Positions 2,494 through 48,268 of a stretch of 59,993 nucleotides of DNA are shown in pieces. The translations under genes and the position numbers were made by a program. This DNA comes from a virus (lineage: Duplodnaviria; Caudoviricetes): IMG/VR virus record IMGVR_UViG_3300044630_000957, positions 1-59,993 of that record. One strand, given 5' to 3'. Within the stretch, counting starts at the first letter, position 1; every line of letters starts with the position of its first letter. The notes below the pieces were generated by a model, which did not search any database, had not been told where the DNA came from, and saw only the letters and a program-made list of their open reading frames with translations.

Positions 2494-4265
2494 CCCAATG
2501 TCGTCCCATCGCCTTGCTGGACGTGCGCAAGCACGAGGCCCATTTGATAGTCGCCGCCGAGGGTGTTGCTCTCGAAGCGGAAGCGCAGCTCGCGGCGCTG
2601 CGTCTTGAGGAAGACGACCTGCTCCTGCGGCGTCTGTGGATCTTCCACAAACGTCATGATGATGCCGTTGACTTCAGGCGCACGCGCGTTGGCTCGGCCC
2701 ATAACCTGAACGGTCATGTCGCCGCTCTGCACGAAGTCAGGCTCGATCATCAAAGCCTGAAGCGACTTGTTGATTTGCGCCGTGACAGGCAGCGACAGGT
2801 CGGCAGTCTCGAAGAACGACTGTATCGGGTTGAGCGTCAGGCCGTCGATCTCGTCGGTGCCGACCTCGTGAACCCAGAACTTGTACGGGTTGTCGAATAC
2901 CAAATTGAACGTCGCGGCAGAACCCGCCCCGCCAGTCACGCTGACAGGGTTGGTCGGGATCTCGGTGTACTGGCCCGCGTTGCTGATGCTGATGCCAGTA
3001 ATGCCGCCTGAGCCGTTGATGGTGGTGACCGTCAGCTCCGTGTCGAGCTGGCCTAGACCGCCCGCAACGGTGAGCGTGTTGCCTACGGCGTAGCCAGTTC
3101 CTGCCGCGACTATCGCAGCCGAAACGGCCTCAGCCTCTTGCGGCTCGACGCCTGACAGGAGCGGCTTGCTGAACACGGCAGGGAAGAGGCCCGCACCTCG
3201 TCCGCCATTGGGCAGCTCGGTGTCGTACCATGTGCCCTCGCGCACGTTGTAGATGACGGCGTGGTTCGGCTCGATGCTGTCGCCAAACGGGAAGCACCAC
3301 CATATCTCACCGAAGCGCGGAACCTTATACGCGAACACCTTCTGGCGCTGCGGATAGTTTAGGTTATCGAAGAAGAAGTTGAGATTGAGGTTGTTCTCGA
3401 TCTCGCGCACAACGCCGTTGAACGACAGGAAGCGGTCAGTGCCGATCCAGTAGAAGATGCCGTCATACTCGATGACGCTGTTGGCCGACAGGATCGACGA
3501 CTGCGCGCTGATAGTGTCGAATTGGAATACCGCCGTGCCGCCGACATACGTGCCGCGTATCAGGCTGTCCGCCGACCAGAACAGGCCAGACGGGCTGTTG
3601 CCCGGTCCGCCGCGCAGTGGCATGGCTTTGACGATCTTCTGGCCTGTAATGTACGCATTGCCTGCGCCAGAGCTGGTAAAGTCCGCCGGATCGTTCGGCA
3701 CGGACCACGCCGCGTAGCCGTCGTTGCCGAAGGCGAACGTGTACGGCGGCAGCGTGACGACGCCGCCAGTGACGCTGAAGTTGGCGGGCACCGTGGTGAC
3801 TTCAGTCAAGGCGCTCGTGCCGAGAAGGTCGCCGACGAAGAGCGCGCCGCCGTCGCTGTTGCAGATGCAGTTCAGGTTCGGCGCGACTTGCGCGACGATC
3901 TGGTTGCCGTTGGTCGTGTCATAGGCCGTGGCGAACTGCCACATATTGCCGTTGTCTACGGTGAAGCCCGACGCGGGCGTGCGATCGGTGATGACGCTCG
4001 TGTTGTACGTGCCGTCGATGAAGAAGCGCTCAAGGCGGTCGGCAGATCCTGCGTGGACATATGTCTGCAAGTCCTGCGTGTACTCGTGCAGCGCACGCGG
4101 CAGGCCGCGCAGGAACTTGTTGATCGAGCGGTAGCCGCCGATCTTACGCGGCAGCCCGCGCTGGAAGCGGACCCACTGGCCGTCAACGTACTGGTCGCCC
4201 TCGAACTTGGTGCCGTCGCGCTTGATGCCGGGGGCAGAGCGTATCTGTACGATTTGTTCGGGCAT
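2490..4265 (-). CDS. Tail nozzle / tail tubular protein B-like (P22 gp10, T7 gp12 class)
   Basis: 591 aa from MPEQ; beta-rich with propeller-like segments (FYWIGTDRFLSFNG, EIWWCFP, VIYNVREGTWY); directly precedes the ejection genes. Confidence 0.7.
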   Translation of the reverse strand: MPEQIVQIRSAPGIKRDGTKFEGDQYVDGQWVRFQRGLPRKIGGYRSINKFLRGLPRALHEYTQDLQTYVHAGSADRLERFFIDGTYNTSVITDRTPASGFTVDNGNMWQFATAYDTTNGNQIVAQVAPNLNCICNSDGGALFVGDLLGTSALTEVTTVPANFSVTGGVVTLPPYTFAFGNDGYAAWSVPNDPADFTSSGAGNAYITGQKIVKAMPLRGGPGNSPSGLFWSADSLIRGTYVGGTAVFQFDTISAQSSILSANSVIEYDGIFYWIGTDRFLSFNGVVREIENNLNLNFFFDNLNYPQRQKVFAYKVPRFGEIWWCFPFGDSIEPNHAVIYNVREGTWYDTELPNGGRGAGLFPAVFSKPLLSGVEPQEAEAVSAAIVAAGTGYAVGNTLTVAGGLGQLDTELTVTTINGSGGITGISISNAGQYTEIPTNPVSVTGGAGSAATFNLVFDNPYKFWVHEVGTDEIDGLTLNPIQSFFETADLSLPVTAQINKSLQALMIEPDFVQSGDMTVQVMGRANARAPEVNGIIMTFVEDPQTPQEQVVFLKTQRRELRFRFESNTLGGDYQMGLVLAHVQQGDGTTLG

Positions 4266-4828: not shown

Positions 4829-7800
4829 TATTTAGCTCCCCGTAGCTCGTCCAGTTCCGCCTTTAACTCTGCGATGGCAGCGAACGCCACGGCGACCAGT
4901 TTCTCGTAATCAACCGCCAGTGTGCCGTCGTCGCGGGTGCGAACGGCCAGCGGGAACATTTCCTCCACGTCCTGCGCGATGACGCCGAAGTCGTTCTTGC
5001 GGACGAAGTAGTCGTCCTCGCCGCCGTGCTCCGCGATGTAGGCGTCGGTCCAATCGAACGTCTTGCCGCCAACAGTAGTCACGATGTCGAGCGCGTTCTC
5101 AATCGGACGCACGTTCTCTTTCAGACGCGCATCGGACGAATAGAACGCCGTGACGTTGTTCGTCGCACGGATCTCACCGGCAGTGCCAGAGCCTGCCGTG
5201 CCGACGCCGAGGCTGTTAACCTGATAGTTGTTGCTTGTGTTCAGCGCGTTTGCGGTGGTCGCCGTCGTAGCGGTTGTCGCCGAGGTGGCTGTCGCCGCGT
5301 TGCCGCTGACGTTGATGGCCCAAGTGCCGCTTGCGCCCGAACCCGTGGCGGAAGGTACACCAAGCGCGGACTGCGCGGTGGCTTGCGTAGTTCCGCCTGT
5401 GCCTCCATTGGCCACAGCGAGCGTGCCGCCAAGCGTCAGCGTGCCCGACGTCGTGATCGCGCCGCCGGTCAGGGTAAGGCCCGTCGTGCCGCCTGATCCA
5501 GAGACTGAGGTGACCGTGCCTGTGTTCGACGTAAAGCCCGAAGGGTTGCTTGCGGCGTAAGCGCCAAGGTTGGTGAGCGCAGATCCAGCGGTTGTTGCGC
5601 CGGTACCGCCGTTGGCCACGGCTACGGTGCCAGTGACGTTGGCTGCCGTCCCAGTCGTGTTCTGGTTAAGCGTTGGGACGTCAGCGGCTACAATCGCACG
5701 GAACGTAGGCGTACCCGCCGTGCCGTTCGGCGCGGACAGGAACGTATTGGCGGATTGTGACGCAAAGTTGGAAGCCGTGACGGCAAGCGTGCCGCCAAGG
5801 GTGAGGGAGCCAGACGTCGTAACCGTACCGCTCAGGCTCAGTCCGCTGACCGTGCCTGTGCCGCCAACTGAGGTGACCGTGCCTGTGTTCGAGGTGAAAC
5901 CAGACGGGTTACTCGCGGGATAAGCGCCAAGGTTGGTGAGCGCAGCGCCCGCAGTCGTTGCGCCTGTACCGCCATTAAGTATGGCGACAGTGCCAGTGAC
6001 GTTCGACGCCGTCCCAGTCGTATTCTGGTTGAGGGTCGGGAATGTGCAGTTTGTCAGCGTGCCAGAGGAGGGTGTGCCAAGCGCGCCGCCCGGAGCGACG
6101 TAGTCAGTGCCTGCGGTAGCGGCAGTGAACGCCGCAGTTCCGTTGCCCTTAACGAGGCCCGTAAGAGTGGTGGTGCCTGTGCCCCCGTTGGCGACAACAA
6201 GCGTACCAGCGAGGGTAAACGTACCCGCCCCTGTGATCGGCCCACCAGCCAAAGTGAGGCCCGTAGTGCCGCCCGACGCGGCCACGGATGTGACCGTGCC
6301 ACCGCCAGCGGTAGAGGTTATGGTAACGCCGCCCGCGCTGTTCGAGATAGATATGCCCGAACCTGCGGTGAGCGTTGCAACGCTGTACCCTGTGCCGTTG
6401 CCGATCAGGAGCTGGCCGTTTGACGGGGCAGTCGCGACGCCGGTACCGCCTTGTCCCACGCTGAGTGCGGTGGTCAAGCCTGTCAGTGACGTGATGTCGG
6501 AGTTCGCGCCGGAGCCAGCCGCGCTGAGGGTAAGTCTCGCGCCGGAGGCACTGGTCGCGCCAGTGCCCCCAGACGCTATCGCGAGCGTGCCCGCGAGTGT
6601 CAGTGTGCCGGAGGTGGTGATGGGCGAACCGGTAAAAGATAGACCGGTTGTGCCGCCCGACGCGGCCACTGACGTAACTGTACCGCCGCCAGCGGTAGAC
6701 GTGATGGTGATACCACCGGCACTGTTTGTGATGCTGATGCCCGACCCAGCCGTCAGGGTCGCCTTCGTGAGCGTGTTGCCTGTGCTGTTACCGATCAGGA
6801 GCTGCCCGTCGGTGTACGTGGTCTGGCCTGTGCCGCCGTTGGCGACAGGGAGCGCAGTGCCCGACAGCGAGATTGCCAGCGTGCCCGATGTCGTGATCGG
6901 CGAGCCGGTTACGGACAGGAACGACGGCACCGTTGCCGCGACGCTGGTCACCGAGCCTGAACCCGTGCCGACGCCCACGCCGTTGATGAAGAGGCCCGTG
7001 GCGTTAATCGTGCCCGCACCCTGCGCTCCGGCAGTAGGCGCGCCGATCTGGATACCTGCCGCGTTGGTCAGCGCAGTGATGTCCGCGTTGCTGCCTGATG
7101 CGGCTGCGCCAAGGCTCGTGCGCGCCGCGCCAGCCGTTGTGGCGTTTGTGCCGCCCTGCGCGACGCTCAGGGGCGTCGTGAGGCCAGACAACGATGTGAT
7201 GTCAGAGTTAGCGCCAGAGGCCGCCGCCGCGATGGCGGAGCGCGCCGCCGCCGTTGTGGTAGCCGTAAAGACCGCCGTGCCGATGCCTGTGCCGCCGAGG
7301 TTGGTCAGGGCCGACGGTGCGTTGGTCGCTCCGGTGCCGCCTTGGACAACAGGAACAATACCCGCAAAGGCTGCTGACGTGGTGGCCGAGATGATGTCCG
7401 TGCCGTCGCAGTACAGGATACCTGTCGCGCCCTGAGTGACCAAAGTGGCCGCGCCGCTGGCCGTCTTGATGCCTAGCGTAAATGCACCAGTCGTGGCGTT
7501 GTTGACCCAGTATTGCTGCACCGTCGCGGGCACAACGATGTTGACGTTGGAAGTCAGCGTGCCTGTGAACTTATACGCGATACGGTTAAGCTCAGAGCCA
7601 GCAAGCGTGTACGTGCCGCCAGTGACGGCGATGGTCGTGTAGTCGAAGGCGAAGACCGCCTGCTGGCCGAGGCCGATGGTGTACCACTGGATGCCGTCGC
7701 TTACGACCACGGCGCTGTCGCCCGGCTGCAAGCGCAGTGTGGCTGCCGCGTTGATAAGCTCAGAGCCAGACGGGTCGATAGTCAAGTCGCCCTGCCCGCC

Positions 7801-25588: not shown

Positions 25589-26503
25589 TTAGATGCCAGC
25601 CGTACCGTATACGCCGCGTGGATCGGTCCAACCGAACGCATAACGCTCGGTAGCCTTGTAGCGCATGCTGTCGGTTTCGAAGTCACCTTCCATGCTCTTC
25701 TCAAGACCACGACGCATAGCGAGCTTCAAACCTTCTGGCGCATCAGTCTGTACCCACCATGCAGTGGTCGAGGTGATACGCGACAGGTTGGCTTGTCCTT
25801 CCGCCAATAAACCCATAGAATTCACAGGGTTAACGTCGTTGTTCGCGGTGCCTGCACGCAGTGCGGACTTCAGCAATACTTCAGCTTGGAACACGTTCGA
25901 AGGACCGGAAACGATCTTCTTAGGTGTCAAGCGGATGCGCTTGCCGTTGTTGTCTACTGCGTTGCGGATCTGGATGAGGATCTGCTCAAGCGAGGTCTGC
26001 GACAAGTTGGCTGCGGTCGTAAGCTGGTTCGAGAACGTACCAGTTGCGATCGGGTGAGACGTGTTGACCAACGATACGCCGTCGCCGCCTGCATACGCGC
26101 TGTTGAAGGCACGGTTCAGGATGTTGGCACCAAGGGTTTCCTTGGTTTCGATCAGCGACTGTGCAAGGTGACGAGCATAGGTCTGACCGATACGGATGTG
26201 ATCGCCATCTTCCACCAGAACCTTTGTCAATGCAAAGGCAAGGCCGTAGACGCGGTACACGTAGCGCTGGATGAACAGCACGCCGCCGGATTGATACGTG
26301 ACAGGCATGCCGTCTGGCAATTCTGGCGCGGCACCAAAGCCGAACAGGACAGGCTCTTCGTGGTAGTTACGGGGAATGCCCTTAAACTCTTTGAAGACCT
26401 GCGCCCACTCATCAGCGCGTTGATCGTAAATTCCGTTGAACTCTTCGTTTAGGATCGGTTCAACGATCGAGCGGAAGTCTGTACTTCTCATTGGGGTAGC
26501 CAT
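25589..26503 (-). CDS. Major capsid protein (HK97 fold, Mu gpT-like family)
   Basis: 304 aa; GFGAAPE..DG..VTY, YGLAFALT...VED and KATERYAFGWTDPRG motifs; AAGGAGG RBS; follows the scaffold region. Confidence 0.88.
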   Translation of the reverse strand: MATPMRSTDFRSIVEPILNEEFNGIYDQRADEWAQVFKEFKGIPRNYHEEPVLFGFGAAPELPDGMPVTYQSGGVLFIQRYVYRVYGLAFALTKVLVEDGDHIRIGQTYARHLAQSLIETKETLGANILNRAFNSAYAGGDGVSLVNTSHPIATGTFSNQLTTAANLSQTSLEQILIQIRNAVDNNGKRIRLTPKKIVSGPSNVFQAEVLLKSALRAGTANNDVNPVNSMGLLAEGQANLSRITSTTAWWVQTDAPEGLKLAMRRGLEKSMEGDFETDSMRYKATERYAFGWTDPRGVYGTAGI

Positions 26504-34158: not shown

Positions 34159-34234
34159 GGGGTAGCTCGACCGAGCTATTCCAAATCACCCAGCCGAGCC
34201 TCCGCCATCAACACCAAACAACACACCATTGTCA

Positions 34235-34478
34235 ATGCAACACGACGTTGCGACGCACCATGCAGCACGACGCATCATGCACCGAGTGCAACTTTCGGAA
34301 CTGGTCAACACACCACAGCAAAAAGCGCAGCGCAACACAGCATCTGCTCGGTGCAGCATTTGCAGCAGGTGGGGTACCCCTAAAGGGGTAACCCCCTTCA
34401 CGCTGCATAAATGCTGCATTTCTCCGAGCTGCACCATTTGCAACATGAGGCTTAATGCTGCAAATGGTGCATGTTGCA
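34235..34478. repeat. Iterated TGCA(A/G/C)CA array with nested inverted repeats; origin or packaging-site candidate
   Basis: Central GGGGTACCCC / TACCCCT-AA-AGGGGTA palindrome; 17-bp inverted repeat 34430-34446 / 34455-34471 with one mismatch. Confidence 0.7.
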
Positions 34479-34507
34479 GGGGTATGAAATTATTTTCATT
34501 ATAGGGC

Positions 34508-34559
34508 TTGCAATGCCTAATTGCATCGTCTAGGTACTGTCTATCAGCAACGAAGGAGA
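34508..34559 (+). promoter_or_regulatory. Early promoter P1 with palindromic operator and conserved leader
   Basis: TTGCAA-N17-TAGGTA; TGCAAT-N5-ATTGCA; leader ATCAGCAACGAAGGAG. Confidence 0.85.
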
Positions 34560-37882: not shown

Positions 37883-37933
37883 TTGCAATGCCTGATTGCA
37901 TCGACTAGGGATTGTTTATCAGCAACACGGAGA
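37883..37933 (+). promoter_or_regulatory. Early promoter P2 with operator and leader
   Basis: TTGCAA-N17-TAGGGA; TGCAAT-GCCTG-ATTGCA; ATCAGCAACACGGAG. Confidence 0.85.
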
Positions 37934-42139: not shown

Positions 42140-42194
42140 TTGCAATCCCAAATTGCATTCCCTATATAGCGTCTATCAGCAACGCAAATAGGAG
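42140..42194 (+). promoter_or_regulatory. Early promoter P3 with operator and leader
   Basis: TTGCAA-N17-TATATA; TGCAAT-CCCAA-ATTGCA; ATCAGCAACGCAAATAGGAG. Confidence 0.85.
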
Positions 42195-42695: not shown

Positions 42696-42976
42696 ACCGC
42701 AGCCGCTATCGCATGTGCGAGGACAGCAAACTTCTTGAAGAGGCGAAGTACAATCCCACCGCAGAGCTGGCCGTCGTGCTGGCCGAGCGTCTGGAGGAAG
42801 TGCAGTTCGAGTTTGACGAACAGCTCGAAGCCGCAAGGGAACGCGCCGCCGACTTTGAACGCGAAGCGAACAAGCTCGACGACGAGGTCTGCGAGTTGCA
42901 ACACAAAATCGACGTGCTTGAACTGATGCTTGCCACGCGTGATGAAACTATTGAACAACTGAAAAAAGGAAACTGA
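42683..42976 (+). CDS. Coiled-coil protein
   Basis: GGAG RBS; heptad pattern. Confidence 0.75.
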   Translation: MELLDRSRYRMCEDSKLLEEAKYNPTAELAVVLAERLEEVQFEFDEQLEAARERAADFEREANKLDDEVCELQHKIDVLELMLATRDETIEQLKKGN

Positions 42977-43507: not shown

Positions 43508-44685
43508 TGGCACACGCCAAACTTAGTCCGTCCGGCGCGCATCGCTGGATGGCCTGTTCAGGCAGTGTTGGCCTTGAGGCACCGTTCCCTGATAGCAGCA
43601 GCGTCTACGCCGCCGAGGGCACCGTGGCGCACGACGTCGCGGCGCAGTGTCTGATCGACGACAGAGATCCGGCATCGTTCATAGGCGACGTCATGGAGGT
43701 CGACGGTTTCACCTTTACGGTCGACAAGGCCATGGCTGACTATGTGGCCGACTACGTCAAGCTCGTTCGCGATCTGGCTAAGGGCAAGACGCTCTACGCC
43801 GAGAGCAAGGTGCCGATCGATCACCTGACAGGCGAAGAGGGAGCCACAGGCACCAGCGACGCCGTCATCATCGACGTTGCCGATCGCAACCTGTCGATCG
43901 TCGATCTGAAGTACGGCATGGGCGTTACCGTGGACGCCACAGATAACCCGCAGCTCATGATGTATGCGCTGGGCGCATTGGAGCTGTACGGCGTCCTGTG
44001 CGACTTCGACACGGTCAGCATGTACATCCACATGCCGCGCCTAAACTATGTGGCCGAGTGCCACATGCCGGTAAGTGAATTACTTACCTTCGCGGATCAA
44101 GTCCGTGAGGCGGCGTCAAGGATCGAGGAACCGACGTTTAACCCCGGCGAGAAGCAGTGCCGCTTCTGTAAGGCGAAGTCGACGTGCCCCGCCCTGCGGG
44201 CTGAGGTGACGGAGATTGTCGGCGGATCGGCCACGGTCGATGAGTTCCTGCCCGACGTGCCAGACATGCAGACAGGCGATAACTATCTGTCTATGGCCAT
44301 GGCGAAGGTCGGGCTGGTCGAAGACTGGTGCAAGGGCGTCCGCGCCGAGGTCGAGCGGCGCTTGCTGGCAGGGCAGACGGTCGACGGCTTTAAGCTCGTG
44401 GAGGGCCGCAAGGGCAACCGCAAGTGGTCGAATGAGGCCGAGGTCGAGGCCCTGCTCAAGTCTTTCCGCATGCGGCAGGACGAGATGTATGATATGAGCT
44501 TGATTTCCCCGACAAAGGCGGAGAAGATGTTCAAGAGTAACCCCAAGCGGTGGGAGAAGGTCGAAGCATTGACCACCCGCAGCGACGGTAAGCCATCTGT
44601 GGCATTTGCCTCGGATAAGCGGTCAGAGATGACCGTTCAATCGGTCGCGGACGATTTCCGTGACCTTCTTAAAACTGCAAACTGA
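43507..44685 (+). CDS. DUF2800 family Cas4-like PD-(D/E)xK nuclease
   Basis: HAKLSPSGAHRW..C, AAEGT.AH, GTSDA, IVDLKYG, NPQL..YALG and QCRFCKAK..C. Confidence 0.9.
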   Translation: MAHAKLSPSGAHRWMACSGSVGLEAPFPDSSSVYAAEGTVAHDVAAQCLIDDRDPASFIGDVMEVDGFTFTVDKAMADYVADYVKLVRDLAKGKTLYAESKVPIDHLTGEEGATGTSDAVIIDVADRNLSIVDLKYGMGVTVDATDNPQLMMYALGALELYGVLCDFDTVSMYIHMPRLNYVAECHMPVSELLTFADQVREAASRIEEPTFNPGEKQCRFCKAKSTCPALRAEVTEIVGGSATVDEFLPDVPDMQTGDNYLSMAMAKVGLVEDWCKGVRAEVERRLLAGQTVDGFKLVEGRKGNRKWSNEAEVEALLKSFRMRQDEMYDMSLISPTKAEKMFKSNPKRWEKVEALTTRSDGKPSVAFASDKRSEMTVQSVADDFRDLLKTAN

Positions 44686-44703
44686 AGAAGTGGATAATTG
44701 ATA

Positions 44704-45288
44704 ATGGCTACACGTATTATGCTCAAGGGCATCACACTGGCGTTTCCGGCTCTGGCCGAACCGCAGGCATTTGGCGAAGGCGAACCAGCCTATGGTGCCA
44801 AGTTCCCGATCAAGCCAAACAGCGAACAGCAGAAGGCCATTGAGGCTGCCATGCTGGCCGAAGCCACAGAGGCATGGAAGGACAAGGCCGACAGCGTTTT
44901 GTCCATGCTGGCCGACGACGGCAAGGTCGCCTTCGCAAAGAAGGTGTACAAGTCGAAGAAGACTGGGGAAGCCTACCAAGGCTTTGAAGGCATGCACTAT
45001 CTGTCTGCCCGCAACGCCAAGACCCAGCCGACCGTGTTTAACGAATACGGCGACGAACTGAAGAGCAAGGGCGACATCGAAGCCAAGGCGTTCAGCGGTG
45101 CGTTGGTTAACGCTTCGGTCGAGATCTGGGCGCAGGACAACAAGTGGGGTCGGCGCATTAACTGCTCCCTGCGCGGTGTCATGCTGACAGGCGAAGGCGA
45201 AAACGTCGGCGGCGGCTCAAGCCCAGCGTCGGCGGATGAGTTCGCGACTTTGGCCAAAGCCAAGGCTGACGCGGACGATCTCCTGTGA
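44704..45288 (+). CDS. Single-stranded DNA-binding protein (DUF2815, T7 gp2.5-like)
   Basis: LAFPAL.EP, FSG..VNAS, INCSLRGVM...GE..GG and an acidic tail. Confidence 0.88.
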   Translation: MATRIMLKGITLAFPALAEPQAFGEGEPAYGAKFPIKPNSEQQKAIEAAMLAEATEAWKDKADSVLSMLADDGKVAFAKKVYKSKKTGEAYQGFEGMHYLSARNAKTQPTVFNEYGDELKSKGDIEAKAFSGALVNASVEIWAQDNKWGRRINCSLRGVMLTGEGENVGGGSSPASADEFATLAKAKADADDLL

Positions 45289-45539
45289 GCGACGTAGGAC
45301 ACAATAGCGCGGGCGATCCGCTCCGCCTTCTGATCGAGCGCATCGAGCGTCTCGAAGAGGAGAAGAAGGGCGTCGCGGAGGACATCAAGGACGTGTACAC
45401 CGAGGCTAAGGCCCGTGGGTATGTGCCGAAGATCATCCGCGAGATCGTCCGCATCCGCAAGATGTCGAAGGATGACAGGGACGAGCATTTCGCGATACTC
45501 GATACCTATGCTTCGGCTATTGGCTTAGACCTACTTTAG
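45285..45539 (+). CDS. gapR: GapR-like nucleoid-associated protein (DUF2312)
   Basis: LRLLIERIERLEEEKK..AEDIKDVY.EAK.RGY..K.IR.IV.IRK. Confidence 0.92.
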   Translation: MSDVGHNSAGDPLRLLIERIERLEEEKKGVAEDIKDVYTEAKARGYVPKIIREIVRIRKMSKDDRDEHFAILDTYASAIGLDLL

Positions 45540-45548
45540 GTCTATAGT
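45520..45548 (+). promoter_or_regulatory. Promoter with a perfect palindromic operator in its spacer
   Basis: TTGGCT-N17-TATAGT; TAGACCTA-CTT-TAGGTCTA at 45526-45544. Confidence 0.75.
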
Positions 45549-45551
45549 CAC

Positions 45552-45685
45552 GGTGTGCCTGCCCCACATCCACCCTTTGCGGGCGGGCACACCTTCTTTC
45601 TGGCGAGCCGCGCGCGGGTGCGGGTTGCTCCTGCGTTGCTGATAACCGAAGCGCGCGGCTCACCTGAAAGAAGGAGTTATCAGCA
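45552..45685 (+). ncRNA. Structured RNA (leader or sRNA) with a loop antisense to the early-mRNA leaders
   Basis: Hairpin 45552-45593 (13 bp); hairpin 45592-45615 / 45651-45674 (22 of 24 complementary); loop contains CTCCTGCGTTGCTGATA. Confidence 0.75.
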
Positions 45686-45978
45686 TGAAACTTACAATCC
45701 CACAAATCCGCGACTTGATTTCTGAACTGACCGATGAAGGCATAAAGTTGTCCCGTCGGCAGTATGAGATAAACTTGCGCATTAACGCTTTGATGCAGGA
45801 GACCTACCGTCGGACCTACAGCCGCGCGCCGGTCAAGAGCAAACGCATCACCAACGCTGTGCGTCTGTCGGTCTGGGCTATGGCAAAAGATAACCCAGAC
45901 GCATCGCATCAAGAGATCGCCGAAGCGCATAACATCAACATCGGTCGCGTCAGCGAGATCCTGCACGGCAAACGATGA
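45685..45978 (+). CDS. HTH DNA-binding protein
   Basis: C-terminal NPDASHQEIAEAHNINIGRVSEILHG HTH; AAGGAG RBS. Confidence 0.8.
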   Translation: MKLTIPQIRDLISELTDEGIKLSRRQYEINLRINALMQETYRRTYSRAPVKSKRITNAVRLSVWAMAKDNPDASHQEIAEAHNINIGRVSEILHGKR

Positions 45979-47939
45979 GCGTCCTGTACCTCGATTTGGA
46001 AACCTTCTGCACCGTCAACATCAGGCACGGCGCGTATCGTTATGCCGAAGAGGCAGAGGTGATGCTTGTCGCCATTGCGAAAGACAACGATCCGGTGGAC
46101 GTCTGGGACACGCAGGACATGCCGAACTGGCGTGAGGCGCTGCGTGAGGCAGTTGAGGCTGCCGACACCGTCGTGATCCACAACAGCAACTTCGATCGCA
46201 CCGTCCTGCGCGAGCAGGGCGTCAACATCCCCGTCGAGAAGATCGTTGACACGATGGTGATGGCGCTACAGCACAGCCTGCCGGGCTCTCTGGGCCAGCT
46301 CTGCGACGCGTTAAACGTGCCGCAGGATAAAGCTAAAGACAAAGCAGGCAAAAAGCTGATACACTTATTCACCAAGCCGTGCCCCAAGAATTGGAAACTA
46401 CGGCGCGCAACACGGGAGACGCACCCCAATGACTGGACAGCCTTCATCGAATACGCCCGACTTGATGTGGACGCGATGCGAGACATACATGGACGCCTGC
46501 CGCATTGGAACGATAGTGATTATGAACGAAACCTTTGGCGGGTCGACCAGAGAATTAATGACCGTGGTATCGCCGTCGACCTCGATTTCGCGCGATCCGC
46601 TCTCCGAGCTTTTGACCGAGCTTCAAGAACTCTGGCCTCTCGTGCAGCCCATCTGACTGGCGGCAGCGTCACCTCGGCCACGCAGCGTCAGCGGCTGCTT
46701 GACCACTTCAAGGACACTCTGGACTTCGAGCCCGAAGACCTGACGCGCGCCACGCTTGGCAACCTGCTCGGTGGGAAGCTCGACCCGAAGGTGCGCGAGT
46801 TGCTGGAGATCCGGCAGCAGGCCGCCGCAACGTCACCGGCTAAGTACACTGTGCTGCTCAACGGCGCGTCACGCGACGGTCGCCTGCGCGGCCTGATCCA
46901 GTTCTGCGGCGCGGCGCGCACTGGGCGTGATGCTGGGCGGCTGTTTCAGCCCCAGAACCTGCCCCGATCGCCCGACTGGTTCGACGACGTCGTACAGGAG
47001 ACGACCGTGGCCGCGTTTAAGGCGGACTGCGAAGACATCATCTGGGACAACGTCAGCGAGCGTTGCGCCTTCGGCGTGCGCGGCGCGCTGGTCGCGCCTG
47101 TTGGCAAGAAGCTGGTCATCGCCGATCTGTCGAACATCGAAGGTCGCGTGCTGGCGTGGCTGGCGAACGAAGAATGGAAGATCAAGGCTTTCAAGGCCTA
47201 TGACAGCGGCGACGGGCACGACCTGTACAAGGTGACCGCTGGACGCATCCTCGACAAAGATCCGAGCGACATCACGAAGACCGAGCGGCAGCTCCAAGGC
47301 AAGGTGCCTGAGCTCGCTGGGGGCTATCAGGGCGGCGTCGGCGCGTACCGGAAGATGGGCGGCGCAGTCTTTGACGCGATGACCGACGAGGCCATACAAG
47401 AGATCGTCACGGCGTGGCGCAAGGCGCACCCGCGCACGCGCAGCCTGTGGTACGACATGGAGGCGGCTGCCCGCGAGGCGATCAACAATCTGGGCGAGAG
47501 CTTCGGCGTGCGCGGCCTGATTACGTTCGACGTCAAGGCGGACACGCAGGGCATCGCGTGGCTGCGCATGCGGCTGCCGAGCGGTCGCTACCTGTGCTAC
47601 CCGTCCCCAGAGGTGTCGGAGAGCGGCACCATCACGCACGAGGGCATGAACCAATACACCCGCAAGTGGGAGCGCCTCGACACCTACGGCGGCAAGCTGA
47701 CAGAGAACGCGGTGCAGGCGATCGCCCGCGACGTGTTCATGTCTGGCATGCTGCGCGCCGAGATCGACGGCTTCAACGTCTGCATCCGCGTCCATGACGA
47801 GCTCGTGTGCGAGACGCCGGACAACCCGACCTACACGAGTGATGGTCTGGCCGCGCTCATGTCGACCAACCCAAGCTGGTCTGGGGGACTGCCCTTGTCG
47901 GCGGCTGGGTTTGAGACGAAGAGGTATAGGAAGGAATGA
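45975..47939 (+). CDS. polA: DNA polymerase family A with 3'-5' exonuclease
   Basis: LDLETF exo I, HNSNFDR exo II, ADLSNIEGRV motif A, R...K..EL..GY motif B, VHDE motif C. Confidence 0.95.
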   Translation: MSVLYLDLETFCTVNIRHGAYRYAEEAEVMLVAIAKDNDPVDVWDTQDMPNWREALREAVEAADTVVIHNSNFDRTVLREQGVNIPVEKIVDTMVMALQHSLPGSLGQLCDALNVPQDKAKDKAGKKLIHLFTKPCPKNWKLRRATRETHPNDWTAFIEYARLDVDAMRDIHGRLPHWNDSDYERNLWRVDQRINDRGIAVDLDFARSALRAFDRASRTLASRAAHLTGGSVTSATQRQRLLDHFKDTLDFEPEDLTRATLGNLLGGKLDPKVRELLEIRQQAAATSPAKYTVLLNGASRDGRLRGLIQFCGAARTGRDAGRLFQPQNLPRSPDWFDDVVQETTVAAFKADCEDIIWDNVSERCAFGVRGALVAPVGKKLVIADLSNIEGRVLAWLANEEWKIKAFKAYDSGDGHDLYKVTAGRILDKDPSDITKTERQLQGKVPELAGGYQGGVGAYRKMGGAVFDAMTDEAIQEIVTAWRKAHPRTRSLWYDMEAAAREAINNLGESFGVRGLITFDVKADTQGIAWLRMRLPSGRYLCYPSPEVSESGTITHEGMNQYTRKWERLDTYGGKLTENAVQAIARDVFMSGMLRAEIDGFNVCIRVHDELVCETPDNPTYTSDGLAALMSTNPSWSGGLPLSAAGFETKRYRKE

Positions 47940-48229
47940 CGCCCGCAGGACGCCTACAGGACCACCTCAAGCACGTCGTGCAGAAGAGTGGGGGTCAGTA
48001 CCGCAAGGTGCGCTGGGAGGGCCGTAGGGGCTGTCCAGACTGCTTTGTGTGGTGGACGTGGCCCAAGGCGGCCTTTATAGAGATCAAGGCGGACGCCGAT
48101 CGCGTCAGCGGGCACCAGCAGCGCGAGATCGAGCGCATGAGAAACGACGGTTTTCCGGTCTTTATCGCTCGGTCGATAGAAGAAATCGACGAAATAGTGA
48201 AAAAAGTGCAGAAGGGGGTTGCAACCTGA
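47936..48229 (+). CDS. VRR-NUC domain nuclease
   Basis: G.PD...FIEIK......S..Q pattern; follows the polymerase. Confidence 0.88.
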   Translation: MTPAGRLQDHLKHVVQKSGGQYRKVRWEGRRGCPDCFVWWTWPKAAFIEIKADADRVSGHQQREIERMRNDGFPVFIARSIEEIDEIVKKVQKGVAT

Positions 48230-48268
48230 CGTTGCATATGCCACTAGAGTGCATCAGCAACGAAGGAG
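48219..48268 (+). promoter_or_regulatory. Early promoter P4 with operator and leader
   Basis: TTGCAA; TGCAAC-CTGAC-GTTGCA; ATCAGCAACGAAGGAG; the -10 box is less clear. Confidence 0.8.

Follow-up and report, generated by a model that had tools for sequence, protein, structure and literature searches.

The window, by which we mean the whole stretch of DNA analysed here, is a complete uncultured virus record of 59,993 bp. Its early and replication genes form a plus-strand block at ~34.5-50.5 kb that encodes a C5 methylase, a primase-helicase, GapR, a 97-aa helix-turn-helix (HTH) protein, a family A DNA polymerase and an SNF2 helicase. Late genes lie on the minus strand on either side, and the terminase (small and large) and portal genes are found at 29.4-34.1 kb. 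Scans of the phage genome revealed no integrase or repressor module and no lysogeny genes, and a profile of the HTH protein searched against 185,579 species genomes returned zero relatives and no prophage copy. The gap between gapR and the HTH gene contains two hairpins, termed hp1 and hp2. The features of this locus and of the four early leaders are as follows.

34542..34558, plus strand: P1 leader target, complementary to the hp2 loop at 16/17 positions
37917..37932, plus strand: P2 leader target, TATCAGCAAC followed by 2 nt and GGAG
42174..42194, plus strand: P3 leader target, 13 contiguous nt, a 4-nt bulge and GGAG; this operon ends at gapR and hp1
45285-45539, plus strand: gapR, last gene of the P3 operon
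45520..45548, plus strand: Px, putative promoter TTGGCT-17-TATAGT from a consensus scan, with the -35 in the last gapR codons and the -10 just after the gapR stop
45552..45593, plus strand: hp1, GC-rich hairpin directly after the gapR stop and the -10; CCUUCUUUCU follows the stem
45592..45674, plus strand: hp2, conserved core, with a long interrupted stem, a small apical stem-loop and an unpaired stretch on the 3' side
45628..45646, plus strand: anti-leader segment, with the anti-SD CUCC in or beside the apical loop and the seed complement GUUGCUGAUA(AC) unpaired on the 3' side
45666..45676, plus strand: 3' arm of the hp2 base stem, GAAAGAAGG at 45666-45674, overlapping the SD AAGGAG of the HTH gene (45671-45676)
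45677..45686, plus strand: self target GUUAUCAGCA, located between SD and AUG of the HTH gene and able to pair with the loop UGCUGAUAAC at 45637-45646
45685..45978, plus strand: gene of the small HTH protein, 97 aa, its stop overlapping the polA start (ATGA)
45975..47939, plus strand: polA, family A DNA polymerase, with the SNF2 helicase downstream
48252..48268, plus strand: P4 leader target CATCAGCAACGAAGGAG

Folding of 45540-45690 gave two abutting hairpins (-74.6 kcal/mol, z = -5.06, equalled by 0/200 shuffles) that span 45552-45674; an earlier, sequence-only reading had claimed two hairpins in the gap between gapR and the HTH gene. The minus strand of the same region gave -71.0 and z = -5.04, and energy alone therefore offers no choice of strand. 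The anti-leader segment of hp2 read on the minus strand at 45628-45644 is the 17-mer TATCAGCAACGCAGGAG.

Relatives of the element were collected by several routes. The nearest cultured phages, the Caulobacter phages RW, KcrB, RLK and GB2A, share 68% identity over 38% of a 2.3-kb query, which is too distant for a comparison set. A search with the HTH protein returned 22 viral loci at 57-97% identity, all of which (22/22) have two hairpins and 18/22 the exact 17-mer loop. A profile search with the same protein extended this to 40 viral loci; 29 of them were aligned together with the window, and hp2 is present in 27/30 rows, the three rows that lack it (L138, L140 and L141) being left out of the structure counts. 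A metagenome search added 32 loci, 22 of which were aligned, with hp2 in 19 and L183-L185, which lack it, again left out of these counts. Two loci (L135 and L136) identical to L134 in the region compared were omitted from the alignment. In addition, the exact 17-mer is found in 57 viral contigs; 16 of these outside the HTH list were inspected and 14 have hp2. The remaining two, L029 and L030, carry the 17-mer with no hairpin and were rejected as carriers of the element, the 17-mer being there by chance. Among the 14 further relatives, hp2 lies directly before a polA-like frame in 12, whose start reads M-S/T-T/V-L-Y/W-L-D-L/T-E-T-F/Y/W from the alignment, before the HTH gene in one and before another gene in one. 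By its position, hp2 is thus the leader of polA, with the HTH gene as an optional insert between the two.

Comparison of these sequences argues for an RNA with a conserved fold. In six divergent variants that were folded, hp2 has a stem of 22-27 pairs with small interruptions (6/6) and presents the seed complement unpaired on the 3' side in the same architecture (6/6). RNAalifold on 25 sequences gave 25 pairs, nine of them with compensatory change. Over 23 distinct rows, the proposed hp2 structure has 94.4% of cells paired, compared to 88.6% in column shuffles (0/500 as high) and 41-52% in slid controls. Eleven pairs changed on both sides, compared to 6.9 in shuffles (1/500 reached 11), and the co-variation score is 0.200, compared to 0.107 in shuffles and 0.04-0.08 in slid controls. 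Within the main stem, 10/23 pairs changed on both sides among the 23 distinct relatives. Whole arms are rewritten in some lineages, where GAGCCGCGCGCG/CGCGCGCGGCUC is replaced by GGGCCGUGCCGCG/CGCGGCACGGCCC in L130-L132 and by GUGGCGCGUGCGG/CCGCACGCGCCAC in L179. The base stem co-varies as well (CTTCTTTC/GAAAGAAG, CTCTGTTC/GAACAGAG and CTCTATTC/GAATAGAG), and the SD of the downstream gene is always inside it. Moreover, U.G or G.U cells occur at several main-stem pairs, against only one A.C-type cell (counted by eye), the type that would be a wobble on the minus strand. These wobble types favour the plus strand, where energy gave no choice. Judged by its aligned sequences, hp2 is a conserved plus-strand RNA structure. 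The sequence-only reading had proposed a search of Rfam, and the element matches no family: cmscan of 44500-46500 at E up to 10 returned only ncS025 and mir-2040, the latter with 24.6 bits where the gathering score is 51, and the whole window gave 0 matches at gathering scores.

The surroundings of hp2 bear on how it might be transcribed. Behind the gapR stop, the TATA(G/A)-type hexamer of Px is kept in relatives at constant spacing, 17 nt from TTGGC. The earlier claim that the element has its own promoter thus comes down to this promoter-like site, a consensus match at 45520-45548 with kept hexamer spacing. The sequence of hp1 varies freely among relatives, and a hairpin abutting hp2 is kept in 6/6 folded (z -5.2 to -8.4). 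A stem followed by CCUUCUUUCU is present in hp1, which is missing from our terminator scan, as its 11-nt loop exceeds the limit of 3-8 in that scan. hp1 may be a partial terminator of the P3 operon, a 5'-terminal protective hairpin of Px transcripts, or both. The scan found no terminator or U-tract 3' of hp2, where the SD and ATG come within 11 nt. The pair hp1-hp2 is therefore a 5' UTR. The element is not a discrete, free-standing sRNA gene, since transcription has no terminator 3' of hp2 and the SD of the downstream gene is built into the base stem; of the two forms suggested by the earlier reading, an sRNA or a leader RNA, the leader before HTH/polA stands and the discrete sRNA falls. A search for RNA evidence gave seven runs with small shares, and the four inspected were contigs. 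Two RNA-library contigs from one relative, X1 (1671 nt) and X2 (487 nt), bridge gapR, hp1, hp2 and the HTH gene; they are possibly DNA and are blind to ends, strand and level.

The loop of hp2 mirrors a sequence that recurs at the early promoters. Four promoter modules carry an exact TTGCAA-N7-TTGCAT, at 34508, 37883, 42140 and 48219, and each is followed ~15 nt 3' by (T/C)ATCAGCAAC, then GGAG, then ATG. Taking TTGCAA as the -35 and the hexamer 17 nt on as the -10, transcription from P1 would start at ~34543, the first base of the seed. With start sites so predicted, the conserved ATCAGCAAC would form the extreme 5' end of the early mRNAs. At up to 3 mismatches, the 17-mer has 4 matches in the window, namely itself, P1 at 34542 (1 mismatch), P4 at 48252 (2 mismatches) and a minus-strand site at 25954 (3 mismatches); the last is probably due to chance. 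The number expected by chance is 0.10, and 4 matches were reached by 0/100 shuffles. The shorter TATCAGCAAC is exact at 34542, 37917 and 42174 on the plus strand and at 45635 on the minus strand, and has 1 mismatch at 48252. At up to 1 mismatch it has 10 matches in the window, compared to 2.56 expected; the five further matches lie at 2979, 8065, 15645, 24000 and 55232, those at 2979 and 8065 being within coding sequence with no SD or ATG. The reverse complementarity of the loop to the shared leader and SD of four early mRNAs (P1-P4), the central claim of the sequence-only reading, was thus confirmed. As the tag varies among close relatives, a match to rRNA is an unlikely explanation of it.

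Comparison across relatives revealed that loop and leaders change together: two independent changes of the seed were found, and several leaders shifted with the loop each time. The co-variation test put forward in the sequence-only reading therefore had a positive outcome. In G001 (complete, 55,882 bp), the loop complement is GTTACCAACAACGGGAGAGGG, and the genome holds five exact copies of the 9-mer ACCAACAAC, one being that of the loop and the other four lying on the gene strand. Each of these four comes either immediately ahead of a purine-rich SD and ATG or in the space separating SD from ATG, and a fifth leader, ACCAACAAG, has 1 mismatch. In G002 (21 kb), the loop complement is GTTATCAAGCAAGCGGAGGG and the seed ATCAAGCAA(G/C). 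The sole other exact copy of ATCAAGCAAGC in this contig is an operator-linked leader at 325, while a second operator-linked leader at 4859, ATCAAGCAACG, differs at 2 positions. Tag/anti-tag pairs thus fall into the specificity classes AUCAGCAAC, ACCAACAAC and AUCAAGCAA. The tag 9-mer was also counted in five other near-complete genomes, which have 6, 7, 8, 9 and 10 copies, with the reversed control at 0 in each. A partial counter-case is L186, read over 10 kb: a single leader (ATTCCAAGCAACG) lies within 5 kb, and its match to the loop complement ATCAAGCAAAC extends over only 7 contiguous nt. The seed changes represent two evolutionary events, and relatedness among the genomes inflates the apparent support.

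Two genomes separate the tag from the promoter. The three leaders of G007 have TTGACA and a different palindrome, and they keep ATCAGCAAC and the SD, with a matching loop; the tag is therefore independent of promoter type. In G009, 5/7 gene-strand copies of the tag lie before GGAGA and a start codon, the other 2 being in coding sequence. A TTGCAA-type site is present upstream of four of these five, and the fifth lies between two cistrons, 4 nt past a stop codon, and has neither operator nor promoter. Altogether, the patterns of G007 and G009 indicate that the tag belongs to ribosome sites and not to a type of promoter. The earlier proposal that the first gene of every early operon is targeted therefore agrees with the tagged P1-P4 leaders but is too narrow, as many relatives target their own ribosome site as well and G009 tags an internal cistron.

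The own ribosome site of the HTH gene forms a further potential partner of the loop. Loop and own site can pair over 9-11 bp, and in relatives variants of the flanks match each other: GATAAC/GTTATC, GATACAC/GTGTATC and, in L139, GATCC/GGATC (as RNA, GAUAAC with GUUAUC, GAUACAC with G(UG)UAUC and GAUCC with GGAUC). The core of eight self-pairs is nearly invariant and hence uninformative, with 1/8 changed on both sides. The self target is absent from the G001 and G002 classes, from L179, from the type of L038, L046, L060 and L071, and from L040 and L081, and in these lineages the loop still matches leaders of the same genome. Self-pairing is therefore not why the loop is kept, and the leader match is not its by-product; as a universal function, self-pairing was rejected for the several lineages that lack the target.

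We propose that hp2 is an antisense RNA embedded in a leader, which pairs with the tagged early leaders; we hold this reading with slightly better than even confidence, and its details with less. Together, hp1 and hp2 would make up the structured 5' leader of the polymerase operon, which is HTH-polA in this phage and has polA without the HTH gene in most relatives; the Px start would fall at the foot of hp1. The base stem of hp2 would lock the SD of this operon, while the unpaired stretch near the apex would display the anti-tag, that is the complement of a 9-11 nt tag (AUCAGCAAC here), together with the anti-SD CUCC. The tag would sit at the 5' end of the early operon mRNAs before the SD, and in relatives also at internal ribosome sites, often including the own one. 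Pairing of the anti-tag with positions +1 to ~+16 of the early mRNAs (16/17 pairs for P1) would then occlude the SD and block ribosomes. The hairpin could act within the polymerase mRNA or after excision, for instance by RNase III, for which a stem of 22-27 bp (about two helical turns) is a suitable substrate; after such a cut the polymerase SD would become accessible, and the apical hairpin would be set loose as a small RNA. Early shut-off and self-limitation would thereby be coupled to expression of the replication operon. Repression rather than activation, the timing, transcription from Px and the processing are the parts of this scheme that we infer. One property of hp2 counts against this scheme: it is very stable (-52 kcal/mol for the 100 nt folded), and the anti-SD lies partly within the small apical stem. 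More tentatively, and at what we judge to be below an even chance, a single hairpin released from the polymerase leader might read the tag by base pairing and, as soon as replication genes are expressed, silence the whole early programme and itself, and also a superinfecting phage of the same class, sparing phages of other classes.

A different account treats the tag as a double-stranded DNA site for a phage regulator that would bind immediately 3' of every early promoter, with an inverted copy placed before the polymerase operon and a separate hairpin that sequesters the SD. The orientation of such a site would not matter to the protein, with which all copies would evolve in step, and this predicts the concerted changes of G001 and G002; the tag also starts at the predicted +1 of the promoters. 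Mismatches between leaders and loop are not of the wobble type and so show no preference for RNA pairing over a DNA motif. We nevertheless consider this account unlikely. Next to the inverted copy there is always a pyrimidine anti-SD (CUCC, CCCUCUCCC or CCCUCC), kept despite diverged sequence, and the copy itself always lies in the unpaired part of a co-varying plus-strand hairpin. The intercistronic tag of G009 has no promoter, and the loop flanks co-vary with those of the self target where the leaders of one genome differ. Moreover, the neighbouring HTH protein was excluded as the reader: its C-terminal helix-turn-helix is invariant across all three seed classes and its gene is missing in 12/14 hp2-bearing contigs, which argues that it is not the DNA reader of the tag.

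An equally improbable alternative confines hp2 to its own transcript, as a purely cis-acting hairpin through which the polymerase operon is processed by RNase III or controlled in translation. The loop would then pair with its own ribosome site alone, the leader match reflecting a tag that all ribosome sites share for some other use. The constant presence of the next SD in the base stem, the 9-11 bp own-site pairing kept through three flank variants and the length of the stem, of a size that suits RNase III, are all what it would predict. However, the own-site target is missing in both altered-seed classes and in several lineages of the main class, in which the loop still matches leaders, and 1/8 pairs of the pseudoknot core changed on both sides.

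Less probable again is that pairing activates or protects, either by shielding early mRNAs from 5'-end-dependent decay or through titration of the loop by abundant early leaders, which would draw it off the polymerase ribosome site and turn polymerase translation on. The position of the tag at the extreme 5' end of early mRNAs, as predicted from the start sites, would suit protection, and self and trans targets would compete for the loop where both occur. Against this, pairing covers the SD, which normally blocks initiation, and a paired loop would leave closed both the GC stem of 11-13 bp and the base stem with the polymerase SD; the titration version also fails in lineages that have no self target. 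That the inverted copy is a coincidence or the relic of a decayed promoter-leader with no present function is very improbable: in the window it has no minus-strand promoter or open frame behind it, as a relic might, but the exact 17-mer is kept in relatives with no more than 57-60% identity in the adjacent HTH protein, its matches in the window face a chance expectation of 0.10, two lineages show concerted change of loop and leaders, and a decayed minus-strand promoter, the alternative named in the sequence-only reading, does not fit the plus-strand wobble pairs and the concerted changes.

The proposed antisense reading has precedents among phage RNAs. The known phage antisense RNAs (c4, CI, sar and OOP) each act, to our knowledge, on one operon and come mostly from temperate phages. 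The c4 RNA is processed by RNase P, and its Rfam family is C4 (RF01695). In P1 and P7, c4 is a structured RNA that shares an operon with its target and is encoded upstream of it; its loops pair around the ribosome-binding site, and its specificity differs between P1 and P7 (PMC12197685, PMC8198154). Compared to the immI operon of c4, hp2 likewise lies upstream of a target ribosome site and of a gene that overlaps the next (ATGA), its seeds fall into specificity classes, and its loop at 45637-45646 is complementary to a downstream site of its own operon (45677-45686), which is absent in several lineages. Unlike c4, it has no Rfam match at E up to 10 and no sequence likeness, its targets are a common 5' tag on four or more other operons, its own SD lies in the base stem, and scans of the phage turned up no lysogeny genes.

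The CI RNA of P4 is cut from the untranslated leader of a replication-gene operon and pairs with sites upstream and downstream (PMC4825925). Similarly, hp2 belongs to the leader of the polymerase operon, and tagged targets are found to either side of it. They differ in that CI RNA causes premature transcription termination in lysogens, whereas the targets of hp2 include SDs, for which a translation block is the simpler inference. Compared to CI RNA and the P4-like elements, with their seqA/seqC targets and IsrK as a structural relative, hp2 has no Rfam match. The element thus appears to work like c4 and P4 CI RNA and, by the Rfam test, to belong to neither family.

Outside phages, RNAIII of Staphylococcus aureus uses C-rich loops to pair with the SD regions of several mRNAs, the regulator being part of an mRNA. 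With hp2, it would have in common a single exposed pyrimidine-rich loop, several SD regions as targets and an mRNA-embedded position, whereas the specificity of hp2 comes from a 9-11 nt tag beside the SD that seems purpose-built and co-diversifies with the loop. In addition, hp2 resembles the T7 R sites and the lambda N leader, which are RNase III-processed hairpins of early mRNAs, and the T4 gp43 translational operator, in that a long hairpin directly precedes an early or replication gene and takes in its SD; we know of no loop in any of these that is complementary to other early leaders. A limited full-text search of open-access papers found no description of a similar arrangement. Here one loop is matched to a tag common to every early operon, with tag and loop co-diversified, in a widespread group of uncultured freshwater phages. 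If the antisense reading is true, the element would be a compact, RNA-only switch from early expression to replication, and the group would offer a natural orthogonal set of tag/anti-tag translation controls with at least three specificities. The wider reading of silencing and exclusion, if true, would give a phage that shows no sign of lysogeny a temporal switch based on RNA, which would also serve for exclusion.

A link to the host emerged in passing. In the same species genomes, the exact 17-mer has 24 matches in unrelated taxa, compared to a rough chance estimate of ~70, L202 being the only one inspected. One of the exact matches falls in a CRISPR array of the bacterium Sandarakinorhabdus limnophila DSM 17366, which comprises 17 repeats; the 34-nt spacer concerned is identical to the apex of hp2 in contig L081. 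The phage group is matched by at least five spacers of this array, at 84-94% identity. These matches indicate that the host is probably a freshwater sphingomonad, with which the GapR gene is consistent, and the link to Sandarakinorhabdus opens the way to bench tests.

The conserved plus-strand RNA hairpin hp2 (45592-45674) lies in the leader of the polymerase operon, where the window has a small HTH gene (45685-45978) between hp2 and polA. This gene is missing from 12 of the 14 further contigs that bear hp2, in which polA directly follows the hairpin on its 3' side (contigs compared with the window: L034, L035, L038, L040, L046, L050, L053, L054, L060, L071, L080 and L081). Wherever the HTH gene occurs, its stop codon overlaps the polA start (ATGA). 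A single low-depth contig (depth 2) was also recovered as record 8 of sequencing run X4, the library of which is merely guessed to be RNA. Compared to window 45592-45687, it is 100% identical across hp2 and the ribosome site to the ATG and unlike it beyond; hence it hints that hp2 and the ribosome site form a module attached to different downstream genes.

The tag, a short sequence complementary to the hp2 loop that sits next to the Shine-Dalgarno (SD) sequence of early leaders, was also seen at ribosome sites outside the early promoters. In G001 (L097), a phage of the ACCAACAAC class, a further tagged ribosome site at 3405 (minus strand) is distant from the early block. Its order of GAAAGG SD, tag and ATG matches the layout of the self target in the window class, namely the tag copy at the HTH gene's own ribosome site. 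In the relative G009 (L221), an intercistronic ribosome site at 42790, 4 nt past a stop codon, combines the tag with GGAGA and a GTG start; neither promoter nor operator was found at this site.

At all four early promoters of the window, a perfect inverted repeat that overlaps the -35 element resembles the operator of a dimeric regulator:

34508-34526, TGCAA-N7-TTGCA
37883-37901, TGCAA-N7-TTGCA
42140-42158, TGCAA-N7-TTGCA
48219-48237, TGCAA-N7-TTGCA

The counterpart in the relative G002 is TTGCAAG-N6-CTTGCAC, and the early promoters of G007 have TTGACA and a different palindrome instead. Between the small terminase gene (minus strand) and the early promoter P1, the divergent region at 34230-34500 is dense in TGCA-containing repeats and includes an operator copy with one mismatch (34235-34253, minus strand). 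This stretch is possibly a control region with multiple operators.

A CRISPR array of 17 repeats (repeat of 31 nt, period of 64-66) was found in Sandarakinorhabdus limnophila DSM 17366 (NZ_ATVO01000010.1, 5092-6189). One of its spacers equals the hp2 apex of the relative L081, and at least four further spacers match this phage group at 84-94% identity, which makes Sandarakinorhabdus the probable host genus. The window stretches listed with spacer matches are:

45615-45644, spacer match
44986-45019, spacer match
46982-47014, spacer match
43901-43938, spacer match
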